A stretch of DNA of 64,000 nucleotides, from positions 1,632,001 to 1,696,000 of the forward strand of contig OY969767.1 in NCBI GenBank assembly GCA_963702895.1. Reading direction: 5' to 3'. Below are positions 15,142 through 35,489 of this stretch, one piece after another. The translations under genes and the position numbers were made by a program. This stretch comes from an uncultured Elusimicrobia bacterium (GTDB taxonomy: Bacteria; Elusimicrobiota; Elusimicrobia; 2-01-FULL-59-12). The stretch's first letter is position 1. Each line of letters opens with the position of its first letter. The notes under the pieces are model-generated. The model saw nothing but the letters and a program-made list of their open reading frames with translations. It searched no databases and was not told the DNA's origin.

Positions 15142-15219
15142 GGTGGCTATAGCTCAATTGGTTAGAGCGCTGCCCTGTGGCGGCAGAGGTTGCGGGTTCA
15201 AGTCCCGTTAGCCACCCCA
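15142..15219 (+). tRNA. tRNA-His (GTG) with G-1 and encoded CCA
   Basis: Cloverleaf; anticodon arm ctgcc-ct-GTG-gc-ggcag; T loop gttcaag. Confidence 0.97.
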
Positions 15220-15244
15220 TCGCTCGCCAGACGTCTGGCGAGCG

Positions 15245-15320
15245 ACCTCAAACCTCACATCGAGCACCTCAAATCTTAAAGATTTGCTATGTTCGTTTTG
15301 AGGTTTGAGGTGCCGTTCGA
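15245..15320. repeat. Inverted heptamer arms (ACCTCAA)n/(TTTGAGG)n across the 3' end of the four-helix-bundle gene
   Basis: acctcaa acctcac atcgagc acctcaa ... tttgagg tttgagg tg. Confidence 0.75.
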
Positions 15321-20111: not shown

Positions 20112-20256
20112 TCGGGGCGTCCTGAGGTGTTGTTTTGTTGTCTATCGGGGTGGCGCCGTTGGTCAACTGGCTCGGGGCGTAGCGTCCCTGACGGTCGCCT
20201 AGCGGCGACCGGAGGGACAGTCCCTACACCCGAAGGGTGTGCGGGACGCAGTTGGT
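20112..20256 (+). pseudogene. Series of tRNA-Pro 5' fragments; the last is interrupted by a hairpin insert at about 20185-20248
   Basis: tcggggcgt (20112), cggggtggcgccgttggt (20146), cggggcgtagcg[insert]cagttggt (20173-20256). Confidence 0.8.
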
Positions 20257-20275
20257 GAAAATGCTGCTGCTGGGT

Positions 20276-20348
20276 CGGGGCGTAGCGCAGTTGGTAGCGC
20301 GCCTGCTTTGGGAGCAGGAGGTCCCGGGTTCAAATCCCGGCGCCCCGA
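20276..20348 (+). tRNA. tRNA-Pro (TGG)
   Basis: Cloverleaf; cctgc-tt-TGG-ga-gcagg; flanked by the inverted pair gctgctgctgggt / acccagcagcagc. Confidence 0.97.
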
Positions 20349-20357
20349 CCCAGCAGC

Positions 20358-20797
20358 AGCGCGGTCGCCAGACTTTTGGCGACAGGTCGCCGGTTCATCC
20401 GCCACACAACGGGCGGATGCCCGACTGTAGTGTGTCGGGCAAATCCGGCCGCCCCGAGTTTTTTTCGGGGCCGGGTTCCGCGCCACTACGTCGCTGGCGC
20501 GCCCGCCAGGATGTAGTGGCGGGAAATCCCGGCGCCCCGACCCAGTAGCGACAAAATAGCGCGGTCGCCAGGTGTCTGGCGACAGGTCGCCGGTTCATCC
20601 GCCACACATCGGGCGGATGCCCGATCGTAGTGTGTCGGGCAAATTCGGTCGCCCCGAGCCAGTTGATGGTGCGGTACCGGGTTCATCCGCCAGACAACCG
20701 GCGGATGCCCGCCTGACGTGTGGCGGGCAAATCCCGCCCGCCACTAAAACACGGCGGGCGCCCGCTGCGGTGCAGTAGCGGGCGGCGCCCCGAGCCA
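20358..20797 (+). pseudogene. Four tRNA-Pro 3' fragments, each interrupted in the T loop by a twin-hairpin insert
   Basis: ggttc[insert]aat...cgccccga at about 20384-20457, 20471-20543, 20584-20657 and 20677-20797. Confidence 0.88.
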
Positions 20798-20878
20798 TGG
20801 GGTAAATTTGATTATCGTCCCCGTAGTACAATGCCCGCCACATGTGCCGAGGCGGAGAGCTGTCTATGGGCCGTTATC

Positions 20879-20950
20879 GCGCCCTTAGCTCAATGGATAG
20901 AGCAGTAGCCTTCTAAGCTACTGATAGAGGTTCGATTCCTCTAGGGCGCA
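20879..20950 (+). tRNA. tRNA-Arg (TCT)
   Basis: Cloverleaf; gtagc-ct-TCT-aa-gctac. Confidence 0.96.
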
Positions 20951-21181
20951 AATTTATAGAGGATCTGAAGGATAACCGATAAGGACCCCCAGGCCCGGTT
21001 GAAGGAACATCATGAAGGTGTTACTCGATCGGCTCGTCCTTATATACCCTTTGAATTAGTCTATACTCAACACTTTGAAGATGCTGCCTTGGCCCGGAAG
21101 CGAGAGAAAATCTTTAAGATTGGAAAGGGAAGGCAGATCTTAAAGAGCATTTGGCGTGAGCATCATTTTCTGGGCCGTTAG
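20951..21181 (+). pseudogene. N-terminally decayed small GIY-YIG nuclease (UPF0213-like)
   Basis: TDKDPQARLKEHHEG...RPYIPFELVYTQHF...ARKREKIFKIGKGRQ; an upstream YRGS is out of frame and followed by a stop. Confidence 0.75.
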
Positions 21182-21244
21182 CTCAATTGGTAGAGCATTC
21201 GCCTCTTAAGCGACAGGTTGCCGGTTCGATTCCGGCACGGCCCA
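21172..21244 (+). tRNA. tRNA-Lys (CTT)
   Basis: Cloverleaf; tcgc-ct-CTT-aa-gcga. Confidence 0.95.
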
Positions 21245-21250
21245 CATTTA

Positions 21251-21354
21251 CAGCAGAGCAGAGAGCAGAGAGCAGAAATACGGCAAACATCTTTTATAGA
21301 ACGGCCGACTCTTGGAGGCCGACCTTTTCTCTGATTTCTGCTCTCTGATCTCTC
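21251..21354. repeat. Inverted heptamer arms (GCAGAGA)n/(TCTCTGM)n with a spacer
   Basis: cagagcagagagcagagagcagaaa ... tttctctgatttctgctctctgatctctc. Confidence 0.8.
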
Positions 21355-21368
21355 ATTTGCCGTTCTTG

Positions 21369-21466
21369 GCGCCCTTAGCTCAATTGGATAGAGCATCTGC
21401 CTTCCCCGCCACTGAGGCGTTGGCGGGTCCGCCAAAGCCATAGTGGCGGAGGAGCAGAGGGTTGGA
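21369..21466 (+). pseudogene. tRNA-Arg(TCG) 5' portion with a twin-hairpin insert inside the anticodon (21405-21450)
   Basis: gcgcccttagctcaattggatagagca-tctgc-ct-TC[insert]G-ga-gcaga-gggtt; 3' end missing. Confidence 0.88.
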
Positions 21467-21475
21467 TCGTTTTGA

Positions 21476-21547
21476 GCGCCCTTAGCTCAACGGATAGAGT
21501 ATCGGTCTTCGGAACCGATGATGAGGGTTCGAGTCCCCCAGGGCGCA
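21476..21547 (+). tRNA. tRNA-Arg (TCG)
   Basis: Cloverleaf; tcggt-ct-TCG-ga-accga; one mismatch in the T stem. Confidence 0.93.
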
Positions 21548-21553
21548 ATTTGT

Positions 21554-21660
21554 GGACCGGTGGCGCCCGCCACTACACCATGGCGGGCGTCCGCCAAGGT
21601 TTAGTGGCGGACGGAATTGGCAGACGCGTCCCGATCCTCGATATGGTTATTGTCGGGACG
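21554..21660 (+). pseudogene. tRNA-Leu 5' fragment with two hairpin inserts
   Basis: ggaccggtggcg[twin hairpin]gaattggcagacgcg[tcccga...tcggga]cg. Confidence 0.85.
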
Positions 21661-21684
21661 TACCGACCGATGAAGCTCGTGCCT

Positions 21685-21767
21685 GGACCGGTGGCGGAAT
21701 GGCAGACGCGCAAGGCTTAGGACCTTGTGCCCGCAAGGGTATGCGAGTTCGACTCTCGCCCGGTCCA
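21685..21767 (+). tRNA. tRNA-Leu (TAG)
   Basis: Cloverleaf with a long variable arm; caagg-ct-TAG-ga-ccttg; upstream of tig, a common position. Confidence 0.97.
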
Positions 21768-21793
21768 AGCACGAACTAATGCCGAGGACGGGA

Positions 21794-21985
21794 CAGACGC
21801 GCAAGGCTTACCTTCGCCTCCTGTATTTTAAGGATGCGATGGCCATCGATAAAACGATCGGCATTCGGCCGATCGTATCGTTGGGGACCTTGTGCCCCAC
21901 TTACGACTGTGGGGCCTGCGCGTTATAGGGAATTGAGGAAGCGCGGGCCCGCAAGGGCTTGCGAGTTCAACTCTCGCCCGGTCCA
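21794..21985 (+). pseudogene. tRNA-Leu 3' portion broken by inserts in the anticodon loop and at the variable arm
   Basis: cagacgcgcaaggctta[insert]ggaccttgtg[insert]gcccgcaagggcttgcgagttcaactctcgcccggtcca. Confidence 0.85.
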
Positions 21986-34116: not shown

Positions 34117-34166
34117 GAAGATCTTCCTCTGGTTACAGTTTCAGGGGCAACGCTCCAGCTCGAGAT

Positions 34167-34238
34167 TGGGTCCGGTGGGTTTCGAACCCACGGCCCCCGA
34201 CTTAAAAGGTCGGTGCTCTACCCCTGAGCTACGGACCC
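34167..34238 (-). tRNA. tRNA-Lys (TTT)
   Basis: Cloverleaf on the minus strand, ccgac-ct-TTT-aa-gtcgg; perfect flanking inverted pair gctcgagatt / aatctcgagc. Confidence 0.96.
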
Positions 34239-34256
34239 AATCTCGAGCCAAATTTC

Positions 34257-34291
34257 GCCCCCGACTTAAAAGGTCGGTGCCCTGCCCCTGA
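34257..34291 (-). pseudogene. tRNA-Lys D-arm and anticodon-arm fragment upstream of the intact gene
   Basis: gcccccgacttaaaaggtcggtgc is an exact copy of 34193-34216, followed by a diverged D arm. Confidence 0.85.
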
Positions 34292-34491
34292 CCATCACTT
34301 TACCACGATAGCCGCAACAATTTCCCTTTGATGAAAGCAACTGTACCATCCGGAACTGCTTCTAAAGGACCCTCATTATATAAGATGTATAATGTTTCGA
34401 AATTTAGGGTCGATTCTCGTCAGAGAATGCTCACCCTTCTGTCTGGATCAGCGGCAAACCTCGTTTTCGTTTTGTGGTCTGGGCGCTGCAG

Positions 34492-34578
34492 GCCCCCATC
34501 GACTCGTGGTTAGGTCACAGCCCTTTTCCGCCACTAGGTCGTTGGCGGACCCGCCGCGATGGAGTGGCGGGCAAGGCT
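34492..34578 (+). pseudogene. Outermost tRNA-Glu 5' half with a twin-hairpin insert in the anticodon (34527-34571)
   Basis: gcccccatcgactcgtggttaggtcacagcccttt[insert]caaggct. Confidence 0.88.
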
Positions 34579-34617
34579 CCGCCACATGACCGGCGGATGA
34601 CCAAGAGTTTGTGTAGT

Positions 34618-34667
34618 GCCCCCATAGACTAGTGGTTAGGTCACAGCCCTTTCAAGGCTGTAGGACG
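34618..34667 (+). pseudogene. Middle tRNA-Glu 5' half
   Basis: Exact copy of the first 50 nt of the intact tRNA-Glu. Confidence 0.92.
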
Positions 34668-34701
34668 TAAGAGAAGTCTTCAGTGCGACTGGAATAGGCG
34701 T

Positions 34702-34773
34702 GCCCCCATAGACTAGTGGTTAGGTCACAGCCCTTTCAAGGCTGTAGGACGGGTTCGAATCCCGTTGGGGGCA
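34702..34773 (+). tRNA. tRNA-Glu (TTC), innermost intact copy, no encoded CCA
   Basis: Cloverleaf; cagcc-ct-TTC-aa-ggctg. Confidence 0.97.
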
Positions 34774-34810
34774 CGCTTATAACTCCCAGTCGCACTGAAG
34801 ACTTCTTGAA

Positions 34811-34880
34811 GGGTTCGCCCGCCACACAATCGGCGGGCGAGCGCCTGAAGTGTGGCGCTCGAATCCCGTTGGGGGCACCA
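34811..34880 (+). pseudogene. Middle tRNA-Glu 3' half with CCA and a twin-hairpin insert in the T loop
   Basis: gggttcg[insert 34818-34861]aatcccgttgggggcacca. Confidence 0.9.
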
Positions 34881-35051
34881 CACAAACTCTTGGTCATCCA
34901 CCGGCCGTGTGGCGGACGAATCCCGTCCCGCATCCTTGTAGCTAAGAGTGCGGGACTGTACCGGCTCATAAGCTCGCCCCAGCGAGCGGGTCAAAGGTTC
35001 GGTACGTTGGGGGCATATCGCTCACGAGTCAAGGATGGACATTGGATCATC

Positions 35052-35489
35052 ATGCAACCTCACGATTCACTGATCGCCGAACACAAGAAACTGCGCGCGC
35101 AAGCAGAAACCCTCGAGGTGCTGATGCGCGACGCACCCCAAACACTGGGGGAGGGTCTCGTACGTTTCCAGACCATGCTCCGAGAGCACTTTCAGCGCGA
35201 GGATGTTTACTACCGGGTCCTGGACGGCGATCAGCGGATCGCTGATCGCGGCCTCATCCACCAACTTCGCAACGATCACGCCGCCGTTGTCTTTATCCTC
35301 GAGAGTCTGGCCATCCGGCTCCGAAAAAACGGTTGTGACGCAGATTGGCGGGGCCGGTGGCGGAACTTGATGAATGTTTTCCTGCCCCATTTAGAGAAGG
35401 AAGAGCAGACCCTTTTTCCTCTGGGATGCAAGCTCCTGTCCGAACAAGAGTCCCGCTTCATTGCCGAGCAGATGGCGCCAAGTGACTAG
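35052..35489 (+). CDS. Hemerythrin-like cation-binding domain protein
   Basis: EH...HFQRED...DH...HLEKEEQTLFP; start trimmed to MQPHDSL. Confidence 0.85.
   Translation: MQPHDSLIAEHKKLRAQAETLEVLMRDAPQTLGEGLVRFQTMLREHFQREDVYYRVLDGDQRIADRGLIHQLRNDHAAVVFILESLAIRLRKNGCDADWRGRWRNLMNVFLPHLEKEEQTLFPLGCKLLSEQESRFIAEQMAPSD

Follow-up and report, generated by a model that had tools for sequence, protein, structure and literature searches.

Nested tRNA gene copies with hairpin-bearing remnants and small GIY-YIG genes in an uncultured Elusimicrobia bacterium

The tRNA-Pro locus

The window analysed here is a stretch of 64,000 nucleotides from an uncultured Elusimicrobia bacterium (assembly GCA_963702895.1, contig OY969767.1), and all coordinates and strands given below refer to it. 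Within this window, tRNA-Pro(TGG) is present as an intact gene (20276-20348, + strand; Rfam score 74.2 bits) surrounded by incomplete copies of itself. Far upstream there are two pieces of its 5' end (20112..20165, +): a 9-nt piece (20112-20120, +), which alone is within chance expectation, and a diverged copy of tRNA positions 1-21 (20145-20165, +). These are followed by a 5' copy (20172..20256, +) in which positions 1-13 (20172-20184) are separated from part of the D loop (20248-20256) by a nested-hairpin insert of 63 nt (20185-20247). The intact gene is enclosed by inverted flanks of 13 nt (20263-20275 and 20348-20360; whole unit 20263..20360, +), the arms of which have no other occurrence in the genome.

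On the downstream side, 3' copy 1 (20361..20458, +) carries the other allele of the T stem; a palindrome of 21 nt (20363-20383) replaces its anticodon arm and a double hairpin of 42 nt (20398-20439) is located in its T loop. Three more 3' copies (20472-20549, about 20558-20658 and 20677-20797; 20472..20797, +) follow, with alternating T-stem alleles and, in every T loop, a double hairpin. The compensated difference between these stems (gccgg/ccggc versus ccggg/cccgg), which had been claimed in the initial annotation, is real. Related to this, the T stem of 3' copy 1 is that of working genes in four relatives (G003, G007, G008 and G010), and the allele that is inner here is found as a remnant in G007, the other allele showing the reverse arrangement.

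The tRNA-Arg, tRNA-Lys and tRNA-Leu cluster

Further downstream, an intact tRNA-Arg(TCT) gene (20879..20950, +) lies without debris of its own, and a small GIY-YIG gene (20969..21175, +), truncated at the N-terminus and with one internal TGA, runs into the intact tRNA-Lys(CTT) gene (21172..21244, +; Rfam match). A long fold-back made of tandem 7-8-nt units (about 21250-21360) is located 3' of the latter. It is followed by a disrupted earlier tRNA-Arg(TCG) (21369..21465, +), which consists of positions 1-36 (21369-21404), a double hairpin of 46 nt in the anticodon loop (21405-21450), and the 3' anticodon stem with the variable region (21451-21465), the copy ending before the T arm. The intact tRNA-Arg(TCG) gene (21476..21547, +; Rfam 64.9 bits) is a divergent replacement allele.

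The outer Arg(TCG) piece is identical at 36 of 36 positions to the working gene of the same-genus relative G003, and at 35 of 36 to those of four other relatives. The inner gene shows 77-84% identity within its own family and 86-87% identity with genes from two other families; a donor search for this allele among 401 genomes of the phylum gave no close donor, the best match being 87%. The compensated change in the anticodon stem (tctgc/gcaga versus tcggt/accga) is likewise genuine. Since the outer copy equals the working gene of G003 and the inner one is divergent, these are replaced genes and not slippage copies.

The 5' part of an earlier tRNA-Leu(TAG) (21554..21658, +) begins 6 nt past Arg(TCG), which is its native position in relatives. 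Its positions 1-12 (21554-21565) and 13-29 (21612-21628) are separated by a double hairpin (21566-21611), and a hairpin of 30 nt (21629-21658) follows them. The intact tRNA-Leu(TAG) gene (21685-21767, +; Rfam match) is accompanied by inverted flanks (whole unit 21675..21776), and behind it the 3' part of the earlier gene (21794..21985, +) survives as three pieces (21794-21810, 21885-21897 and 21949-21985) separated by inserts of 74 nt and 51 nt. The two parts of the earlier gene overlap by 8 nt of tRNA sequence. The last outer piece agrees at 36 of 37 positions with the working gene of G003 and at 34 of 37 with the inner gene.

The tRNA-Glu nest, tRNA-Lys(TTT) and tRNA-His

At tRNA-Glu(TTC) there is a nest of three levels (34492..35015, +). 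The outermost 5' copy (34492-34585) contains three hairpins, and the outermost 3' remains lie at 34916-35015. Between them the middle copy is present as two halves (34618-34666 and 34811-34878, the second with a double hairpin of 42 nt at 34818-34859), bordered by arm pair 2 (34597-34614 and 34880-34897). This middle copy is interrupted precisely at the junction of positions 49 and 50, where an arm-tRNA-arm segment of 144 nt is inserted, in which arm pair 1 (34672-34692 and 34786-34806) encloses the intact gene (34702-34773). Pro(TGG), Leu(TAG) and Glu(TTC) thus have, at each locus, 5'-side pieces upstream together with 3'-side pieces downstream, as had been stated before.

At Arg(TCG) and Lys(TTT), in agreement with the same source, pieces are present upstream only. 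The tRNA-Lys(TTT) gene (34167-34238, - strand; Rfam match) has inverted flanks of 9 bp (whole unit 34158..34292) and an upstream 5'-side piece corresponding to positions 13-47 (34259-34292, -). Upstream fragments had also been proposed, weakly, for tRNA-His (15143-15216, +; Rfam match), a proposal that is not confirmed, the sole upstream match being 11 nt at E 0.04. Downstream of this gene there is a perfect palindrome of 26 nt (15220-15245; with the gene, 15143..15245), as well as a T-arm-like stretch; the palindrome is a member of the hairpin family, but there is no clear nest.

Own-tRNA pieces across the genome

What was noticed in the window extends to the whole genome. In a genome-wide survey, pieces of the own tRNA were found within 1 kb at 29 of 47 tRNA loci, against control counts of 0/47, 3/47, 1/47 and 1/188. 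Direct orientation was seen in 76 of the 77 pieces, and 67 of these 76 conform to one polarity, being 5' parts located upstream (26) or 3' parts located downstream (41), with 9 exceptions, so that fragment polarity is strongly non-random across the genome. The distance from stub to gene is 5-70 nt, the units measure 82-312 bp, or roughly 80-320 bp, and the spacers from piece to piece amount to tens to hundreds of bases free of cargo.

In the interval 14.5-35.5 kb the Rfam tRNA model has eight matches, all of them full-length inner genes, and none of the outer copies in that interval matches it at E<=1. The second Glu call made by ARAGORN (34618-34704) is the 5' half plus flank, that is, a stub taken for a gene; such stubs would be a source of error in tRNA annotation.

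Besides, the Arg(GCG) locus is a nest of three levels, and arrays of identical units are present at Gln (5-6 units of 82 bp), Val (5 units of 120 bp) and Phe. The inner Glu copy is identical to the middle one. This identity, like that of the Gln, Val and Phe units, fits intragenomic copying as well as import.

These arrays agree with an explanation by passive scars, in which ordinary tandem duplication or slippage ending inside a tRNA gene leaves an intact copy and a stub, and hairpins collect later with no dedicated element; selection for one intact copy would then yield the polarity automatically. However, the outer copies represent other alleles that once worked and that relatives share, the nests at Glu and Arg(GCG) arose by insertion rather than by tandem duplication, and passive scarring gives no reason for the perfect and unique inverted flanks described below. 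Moreover, the same class of hairpins and the same GIY-YIG family occur at tRNA sandwiches of unrelated phyla. We regard this explanation as unlikely.

The breakpoints in T and anticodon loops could also suggest attachment-site remnants of phages, integrative and conjugative elements (ICEs) or islands whose tyrosine integrases target tRNA genes. Displaced direct 3' pieces are said, by Williams in 2002 for islands of the Islander type, to be the classic mark of integration into tRNA genes. Nevertheless, the genome has only four matches to PF00589, none of them within the window, the spacers are short and cargo-free, and upstream 5' stubs are as common as downstream 3' stubs. At the orthologous cluster of the same-genus G003 there are no islands: it is compact, the five tRNA genes spanning only 448 bp. 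The pieces therefore do not represent attachment sites of any recognisable phage or ICE, and this origin seems extremely improbable.

Sequencing data were also consulted. The best-matching DNA run contained 0.19 of the sequence words, and no RNA run with matches was listed; the reads of four runs gave only conserved tRNA parts and two exact low-depth contigs over 20624-21136, and none of the joints could show units being gained or lost.

Inverted flanks around intact genes

Perfect inverted flanks of 9-16 bp surround 14 of the 47 intact tRNA genes and none of 235 controls. The flanks that had been described as extending the acceptor stem do so by 12 bp in Pro, 9 bp in Lys(TTT), 8/9 bp in Leu(TAG) and 7/8 bp in Glu, where a perfect arm of 21 bp follows the part adjoining the gene. 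All 14 helices are fully Watson-Crick paired, with no G-T pairs and no mismatches. At the orthologous Pro(CGG) locus the flank sequences differ among G005, G006, G007, G008 and this genome, and in G003 this locus has no inverted flanks. Flanks were counted in 1 of 11 genes that encode CCA and in 13 of 36 others by manual tally of the flank list; a link between encoded CCA and flanks was dropped, as the difference is unconvincing.

Precursors of split archaeal tRNAs have flanks that likewise extend the acceptor stem. The flanks here could accordingly be read as having a role at the RNA level, the loci serving as processing scaffolds, as decoys for tRNA-cutting toxins, or as halves of split or intron-bearing tRNAs; the stubs share the orientation of the gene and are predicted to be co-transcribed with it. 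This reading is very unlikely: an intact gene is present at every locus, no outer copy is recognised by the tRNA model at the threshold given above, and the stubs are truncated and differ between relatives. The perfect Watson-Crick pairing points to templating of DNA rather than to selection on RNA, and with helices free of mismatches a test of G-T against A-C pairs, which would separate RNA-level from DNA-level pairing, says little.

Snap-back repair, with a new 3' end folding back onto the acceptor stem and using its own leader as template, was considered and set aside because it does not yield the Glu nest, in which arm pairs 1 and 2 are not the same. It would explain unique and perfect flanks accompanied by one-sided stubs.

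Hairpins in the outer copies

The outer copies carry hairpin inserts at the sites indicated in the initial annotation: the anticodon loop (Arg), the T loop (Pro and Glu) and the D arm (Pro and Leu). In the whole genome there are 189 strict GC hairpins, 81 of which lie within 1.5 kb of tRNA genes, a zone that makes up about 5% of the genome. Many form inverted doublets of 20+2+20 nt (about 42 nt). A strict scan for T arms with inserts gave 28 cases versus 12 in its control, of which only the 14 inserts with a length of exactly 44 nt were used; all of these are at one position, with a repeated dinucleotide in 12 of the 14. A permissive scan for T arms carrying inserts in the loop was discarded as mostly noise (669 hits versus 570 in the control with reversed sequence). 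Within the family the junction motif has a patchy distribution, with 22 occurrences here, 13 in G007, 4 in G001, 2 in G005 and none in seven other genomes.

The hairpins themselves could be primary, as palindromes of the REP/REPIN kind that insert into loops, those of tRNA genes included, which single-stranded DNA forms on folding, with survival requiring a spare copy and the GIY-YIG genes being bystanders. The concentration near tRNA genes, the fixed position of the T-loop inserts, the patchy junction motif, and the fact that hairpins also occupy the centres of other palindromes would all be expected. On the other hand, no clear RAYT or IS200-type transposase was found in the genome, which has just a partial PF01797 match (23.3 bits, covering positions 10-64 of the 121 in the profile) in an open frame of 89 codons. 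Hairpins frequently replace an arm exactly instead of being inserted into it, some stubs in G006 and G008 have clean T loops, so that nests can form without a hairpin there, and the GIY-YIG genes are linked to tRNA genes across phyla. It is thus quite unlikely that the hairpins are the primary agent.

Small GIY-YIG genes and their link to tRNA genes

The truncated gene between tRNA-Arg(TCT) and tRNA-Lys(CTT) matches PF01541 with E 2e-4 and 22.0 bits, just below the cut-off of 22.6, and reaches 108 bits against a profile of its tRNA-linked paralogues. It is not isolated. Five of the eight small GIY-YIG genes of the genome, besides this truncated one, are located in sandwiches between a tRNA gene and a tRNA fragment; the tRNAs concerned are Asn (two genes), Ala(GGC), Gln(TTG), Ile/Ala and Lys(CTT). 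The tRNA-linked proteins have 79-86 residues and match PF01541 with E values from 7.7e-18 to 2.8e-10; neither Pfam nor NCBIfam revealed a further domain, for example a DNA-binding one, beyond the catalytic domain. The protein encoded beside tRNA-Ala(GGC) (G000:C1:1700931-1701170) has 79 residues, and an Asn-linked one has 86. Among solved structures, the nearest chains are those of the UPF0213 proteins 1ywl and 1zg2 (E about 1e-8).

The same pattern is seen among homologues across phyla. Out of 80 such loci, 30 have the gene within 400 bp of a tRNA, always in the same orientation (30/30), and in 19 of these 30 a piece of the same tRNA, likewise of the same polarity, is found on the far side of the gene. 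Hairpins of the CCGCC/GGCGG class are present at 15 of the 30 tRNA-linked loci versus 3 of 49 unlinked ones, and at the linked loci they total 37 versus 1.2 in shuffled sequences; in this genome they adjoin the Asn, Ala and Ile/Ala copies of the gene. The co-occurrence with small GIY-YIG genes that had been suggested earlier is therefore borne out, here and across phyla. Two counts run against the selfish-cassette explanation proposed below: at 49 of the 80 homologous loci there is no tRNA within about 1.5 kb, and about 21 of 27 loci with own-tRNA debris have no nuclease gene.

A proposed mechanism

The architecture, its polarity, the nesting and the replacement by different alleles are observed, as is the association with GIY-YIG genes and hairpins, the last both in this genome and across phyla. 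The nesting, the alleles of relatives and the swapped inner and outer roles identify the outer copies as alleles that once worked before being disrupted and replaced, as the initial annotation had concluded. Its cycles of disruption and replacement thus stand, whereas a renewal system serving the host and a decoy role of the stubs are putative readings, the former fitting less well than a selfish cassette. We consider it somewhat probable that, in this genome and its family, the loci derive from a homing-like selfish tRNA cassette that regenerates its target and leaves hairpin-tagged stubs.

Such a cassette would comprise a single-domain GIY-YIG gene (about 80 residues), a whole or partial replacement tRNA and short CCGCC...GGCGG hairpins. 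The resident tRNA gene would be broken within a loop, presumably through cutting by the nuclease, and repair would copy in a segment with a whole tRNA, in this lineage usually bracketed by mutually complementary stretches of about 15-25 nt. The working gene would then occupy the centre, and of the old one two stubs would survive, the 5' half upstream and the 3' half downstream. As the regenerated gene would again be a target, further rounds would give Russian-doll nests, and local amplification may generate the head-to-tail arrays. Hairpins in the loops of stubs, or in place of them, would mark the stubs as dead and probably uncuttable. The nuclease gene would have been lost from most loci in this genome, the scars being kept; entry of the cassette into new genomes, the cut site, and the functions assigned to hairpins and flanks are likewise parts of the model. 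Three features sit less easily with it. The proteins show nothing besides the catalytic core with which a tRNA gene might be recognised, it is odd for a homing enzyme that the regenerated gene stays a target in its own host, and the selfish-cassette reading does not account for how the unique flanks with their perfect pairing arose.

Another reading is rather unlikely, and is offered tentatively. The mobile unit may be the tRNA gene itself, clamped by a freshly templated inverted repeat and forming a long hairpin of single-stranded DNA; a minimal GIY-YIG nuclease that reads hairpins would put these units and the CCGCC/GGCGG hairpins into loops of folded DNA, the resident tRNA included. If true, this would be a class of mobile DNA guided by structure and not by sequence, and a general bacterial route for the exchange and turnover of tRNA alleles.

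Genes for tRNA are usually viewed as very stable, but more than half of those in this genome record repeated disruption and replacement, and some of the replacing alleles depart from the descent of the family. Returning to the selfish cassette, its existence would imply a new path for tRNA alleles between lineages, and if a nuclease of about 80 residues and short hairpins drive the pattern, they would be among the smallest self-propagating elements known. In the literature covered, to which subscription journals contributed little, no description of tRNA-nested GIY-YIG cassettes was found.

Comparison with known systems

Islands (Islander-type) and phages that integrate into tRNA genes supply the displaced part of the tRNA, so the gene stays intact and a direct stub is left, with breakpoints in T or anticodon loops. 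The loci described here share the intact gene, the direct-orientation stub and the breakpoints in those loops, but they differ in having no integrase beside the tRNA (none in the window), units of the short sizes given above instead of kilobases of cargo, and two-sided, nested stubs with whole tRNA copies inside the old gene. In the rtT repeats behind tyrT/tyrV of E. coli, head-to-tail units contain the 3' end of the tRNA, as here; to our knowledge they are restricted to a single locus and have no hairpin plugs, 5' stubs, nesting or nuclease gene. Unlike archaeal split or intron-bearing tRNA genes, every locus here has an intact gene and no joining is needed.

The REP/REPIN elements with RAYT transposases (PMC3733652 and PMC3184786) resemble the hairpins in being short GC-rich palindromes with inverted doublets of about 42 nt and many dispersed copies. 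They differ in that no clear RAYT gene was found here, no GTAG/CGTC tag is present in the T-loop insert copies listed, and the hairpins of this genome show a strong preference for tRNA loops and exact replacement of arms.

SegB is a phage GIY-YIG enzyme encoded in a tRNA cluster, which cuts tRNA-containing DNA and drives recombinational tandem amplification of a unit made of tRNA and segB (PMC13096335). The genes of SegB and of the other free-standing GIY-YIG homing endonucleases of T-even phages are placed between or beside tRNA genes, as in this genome, and the amplification resembles the Asn, Gln, Val and Phe arrays found here. In contrast to the Seg type, the proteins of this genome consist of the catalytic domain only, with no separate DNA-binding region found in their 79-86 residues; the loci belong to bacterial chromosomes and not to phages; and the target tRNA is split and regenerated, with nested stubs and conserved hairpins. 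For cutting of the gene-free allele and copying of the gene with its flanks into it, as in the Seg type, the replaced alleles and the sandwiches offer indirect evidence.

A parallel in protein size is SsnA from Neisseria meningitidis, a single-domain GIY-YIG enzyme of 94 residues whose gene is flanked by NTS/SRM hairpin repeats and which cleaves single-stranded DNA next to its hairpin (Chenal et al. 2025, PMC11893778). Small single-domain GIY-YIG genes flanked by hairpin repeats are common to the Ssn family (SsnA, cd10448) and to this genome, and a compact structure-specific DNA-cutting tool, as proposed for Ssn enzymes, may be available here too. Differences are nevertheless evident. The word "tRNA" occurs zero times in the text of PMC11893778, and there are no matches to the SRM consensus within 500 bp of the six tRNA-linked GIY-YIG genes. 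Such matches do lie near two other GIY-YIG genes of this genome (two at G000:C1:543345 and one at 554285), and the genome total is 147 versus 17 in the control. An Ssn-like pair, separate from the tRNA-linked genes, therefore coexists with them in this bacterium.

tRNA genes and their pieces in the genome

The genome is a single contig of 2.72 Mb with a G+C content of 57%, in which ARAGORN predicts 48 tRNAs, nine of them in the window. Between 14.5 and 35.5 kb, the Rfam tRNA model recovers exactly eight full-length genes and, beyond these, nothing tRNA-like at E≤1. Split or intron-bearing tRNAs are ruled out here, with eight full-length matches and no outer copy (a disrupted remnant around an intact, inner gene) at that threshold. 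The 87-nt "tRNA-Glu" called by ARAGORN at 34618-34704 is false: it joins the 5' half of a displaced copy to flanking sequence and has no Rfam support. It has been excluded from all tRNA counts (n = 47), and stubs of this kind can inflate annotated tRNA numbers.

With all tRNA genes masked, the 1-kb flanks of every tRNA were searched for pieces of that tRNA at a cut-off of at least 26 bits. Pieces of the own tRNA occur genome-wide and beyond chance: at least one was found at 29 of the 47 loci (on both sides at 10, only upstream at 9, only downstream at 10, none at 18), Arg(TCT) and Lys(CTT) being counted among the 29 only through debris of their neighbours. When the same tRNAs were compared with the flanks of other tRNAs, matches appeared at 0, 3 and 1 of 47 loci, and with random places at 1 of 188. 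Direct orientation is found in 76 of 77 pieces, including 26 5' parts upstream and 41 3' parts downstream; the exceptions are four 3' parts upstream and five 5' parts downstream. The polarity noticed in the initial annotation is therefore non-random, as 67 of the 76 pieces follow it. At other tRNA loci of the genome, units are repeated head to tail: Gln(CTG) has 5-6 such units of 82 bp, Val(GAC) five of 120 bp and Asn two of 312 bp, and arrays also occur at Phe and Gly(CCC). A full-text literature search found no description of such a tRNA-nested arrangement.

Nested copies in the window

The 5'-side fragments upstream and 3'-side fragments downstream reported for Pro, Leu and Glu are present at all three loci. 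Upstream of tRNA-Pro(TGG), a 63-nt nested hairpin interrupts the D arm of a 5' copy; the four 3' copies downstream all contain a double hairpin in the T loop, and two of them carry a 21-nt palindrome exactly at the place of the anticodon arm. tRNA-Leu(TAG) is flanked by a 5' part covering positions 1-29, into which a double hairpin is set after position 12, and by a 3' part broken into three pieces. The outer 5' part starts 6 nt past Arg(TCG), where the working Leu gene starts in relatives. tRNA-Glu(TTC) forms a nest of three levels. A 144-nt segment, composed of the intact tRNA with arm regions of 35 nt before it and 36 nt after it, interrupts the middle copy precisely at the junction of positions 49 and 50. 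The nest has two arm pairs, of 21 and 18 nt, which form perfect inverted repeats and have no other copy in the genome. Immediately behind this nest, an ORF of 145 codons from ATG (35053-35489, forward strand) presumably resembles a hemerythrin-type four-helix protein, and may be one of the four-helix-bundle genes intended in the initial annotation.

Upstream fragments had also been described at three further genes. At Arg(TCG) there is a copy of positions 1-36, followed by a 46-nt double hairpin in the anticodon loop and the remaining anticodon stem, and at Lys(TTT) a 5'-side piece lies 17 nt upstream; the fragment at His, already noted as weak, amounts to an 11-nt match (E 0.04) and is not upheld. 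Nor are the fragments attachment sites of recognisable phages or integrative elements: the genome has four tyrosine-recombinase matches, none of them in the window, and integrase islands are rejected as there is also no space for cargo.

Outer and inner alleles

The outer Arg(TCG) piece is identical over 36/36 nt to the working gene of a relative of the same genus (G003), and over 35/36 to those of four other relatives, whereas it shares only 18/36 ungapped positions with the inner gene, which agrees with the proposal that outer copies are different, once-functional alleles and not slippage products. The inner Arg(TCG) gene has 77-84% identity to the genes of its own family and 86-87% to genes of two other families, and the search, which covered 401 genomes of the phylum, found no close donor. 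The last outer Leu piece matches G003 at 36/37 positions versus 34/37 for the inner gene. The outer Pro T stem is that of the working genes in four relatives (G003, G007, G008 and G010); the inner one is in use in G005, and in G007 it also occurs behind the working gene, in a remnant plugged by a hairpin. This swap of T-stem alleles, and the match of outer alleles to working genes of relatives, speak against slippage.

Stubs with the same breakpoints exist at Pro loci of six relatives (G001, G003, G005, G006, G007 and G008), and at the orthologous Pro(CGG) locus the inverted-flank sequence differs among all genomes having flanks. The five-tRNA cluster spans 1,494 bp here versus 448 bp in G003. 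On these comparisons, the stubs are best read as the product of repeated replacement, and not as one inherited old scar or as slippage.

Hairpins and inverted flanks

A strict search of the genome yielded 189 hairpins of one class, whose stem is GC (for example CCGCC/GGCGG) and whose 8-11-nt loop has ends of ACAC or GTGT type. Of these, 81 are found no more than 1.5 kb from a tRNA, in a zone that covers about 5% of the genome; others are centred within other palindromic repeats. Fourteen stubs of six tRNA species carry T-loop inserts of exactly 44 nt (20 + 2 + 20 + 2) after loop position 57, with a perfect T stem, and in 12 of them the final two bases repeat the two preceding the insert. A palindrome of this hairpin class takes exactly the place of the anticodon arm in stubs of four tRNAs, namely Pro, Arg(GCG), Ala(GGC) and Ala(TGC). 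The motif that joins T loop and hairpin was counted 22 times in this genome, 13 in G007, 4 in G001 and 2 in G005, with none in the seven other family genomes or in the controls. Behind tRNA-Pro(CGG) of G006 (locus L010, G006:C45:17000-17900, positions 486-615), a unit of flank and 3' stub, in which a palindrome replaces the anticodon arm and the T loop is clean, is present twice in tandem; T-loop hairpins are therefore not required for stub formation. The only match to the Y1 transposase family in the studied genome is weak and partial (23.3 bits), so no RAYT obviously moves the hairpins.

Inverted flanks that extend the acceptor stem reach a score of at least 8 at 14 of 47 genes, compared with 0 of 235 mismatched pairings. 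All 14 helices are perfect Watson-Crick pairings of 9-16 bp, and each flank arm looked up is unique within the genome. The closest 5' stub usually ends 15-25 nt ahead of the gene, and therefore the inserted unit consists of the tRNA and a short flank per side. A snap-back leader copy as origin of the flanks would explain the one-sided cases, but not the Glu nest.

Small GIY-YIG genes

Nine GIY-YIG domain matches were found in the genome, UvrC and eight small genes. The suggested co-occurrence with such genes is borne out, as five of the eight lie within tRNA/stub sandwiches and 30 of the best 80 homologues from across prokaryotes are tRNA-linked. The five comprise two diverged 86-codon genes, one in each Asn unit; one gene that separates the intact Ala(GGC) from a hairpin-plugged pseudo-copy of full length; one flanked by a Gln(TTG) stub and the Gln(TTG) gene; and one with an internal TGA (G000:C1:580611-580850, contig positions) in the rRNA operon spacer from tRNA-Ile to tRNA-Ala(TGC), the latter being followed by a hairpin-plugged Ala stub. 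The sixth tRNA-linked gene, N-terminally truncated, is in the window and runs into tRNA-Lys(CTT). Among family relatives, five of the six best-scoring GIY-YIG genes adjoin a co-oriented tRNA (Ala(GGC) twice, Asn, Gly(CCC), Ser(GCT)), compared with 0 of 4 in a weaker-scoring subfamily.

The cross-phylum sample, with one genome per species, gave 146 confirmed homologues, the best 80 of which come from many phyla. The 30 linked ones have a tRNA within 400 bp (within 150 bp in 27), always co-oriented; 49 have none in the locus, and one locus with a tRNA 924 bp off was left out of this unlinked set. Beyond the nuclease gene, 19 of the 30 carry a piece of the same tRNA and 22 some piece, which is a 3' part for upstream tRNAs and a 5' part for downstream ones. 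Hairpins of the CCGCC/GGCGG class lie within 400 bp at 15 of the 30 linked loci versus 3 of the 49 unlinked (37 hairpins in total at the linked loci versus 1.2 in shuffles). By eye, they are placed within stub loops or in their stead, as in the studied genome.

The published pairing of Ssn nucleases with the SRM hairpin repeat (PMC11893778) was also considered; that paper does not mention tRNA. The SRM consensus has 147 matches in the genome versus 17 in the reversed-sequence control, and none at up to 500 bp from any of the six tRNA-linked genes, for which this pairing is ruled out. Two other small genes of 96-97 residues, not beside tRNAs, have two (G000:C1:543327-543617) and one (G000:C1:554270-554563) SRM matches within that distance, and a separate Ssn-like pair of nuclease and repeat seems to coexist with the tRNA-linked kind.

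Proposed mechanism

With little more than even confidence, we lean towards a homing-like cassette, which would break the tRNA gene within a loop; the break would be mended with a segment restoring the gene, the old halves staying as stubs. Repeated rounds would produce the nests, and recombination the arrays. GIY-YIG homing enzymes make a 2-nt staggered cut, which would be consistent with the dinucleotide repeat at the T-loop inserts. The hairpins may immunise the stubs or serve as a handle for the enzyme. The arrays resemble those of phage SegB, for which recombination into tandem arrays of tRNA-containing units is shown (PMC13096335).

Other repeats behind tRNA genes

Long fold-back hairpins whose tandem units are 7-8 nt long (GCAGAGA and CTCAGAG types) are situated directly behind several tRNA genes: Lys-CTT (window positions 21250-21360), Val-GAC (near G000:C1:1171000-1171690, where most of each 120-bp unit consists of them), Cys, Phe, Trp and Thr-GGT. 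Directly behind tRNA-Ala(GGC), at about G000:C1:1700680-1700840, there is a tetranucleotide run of a few CCAT units followed by around 25 CTAT units.
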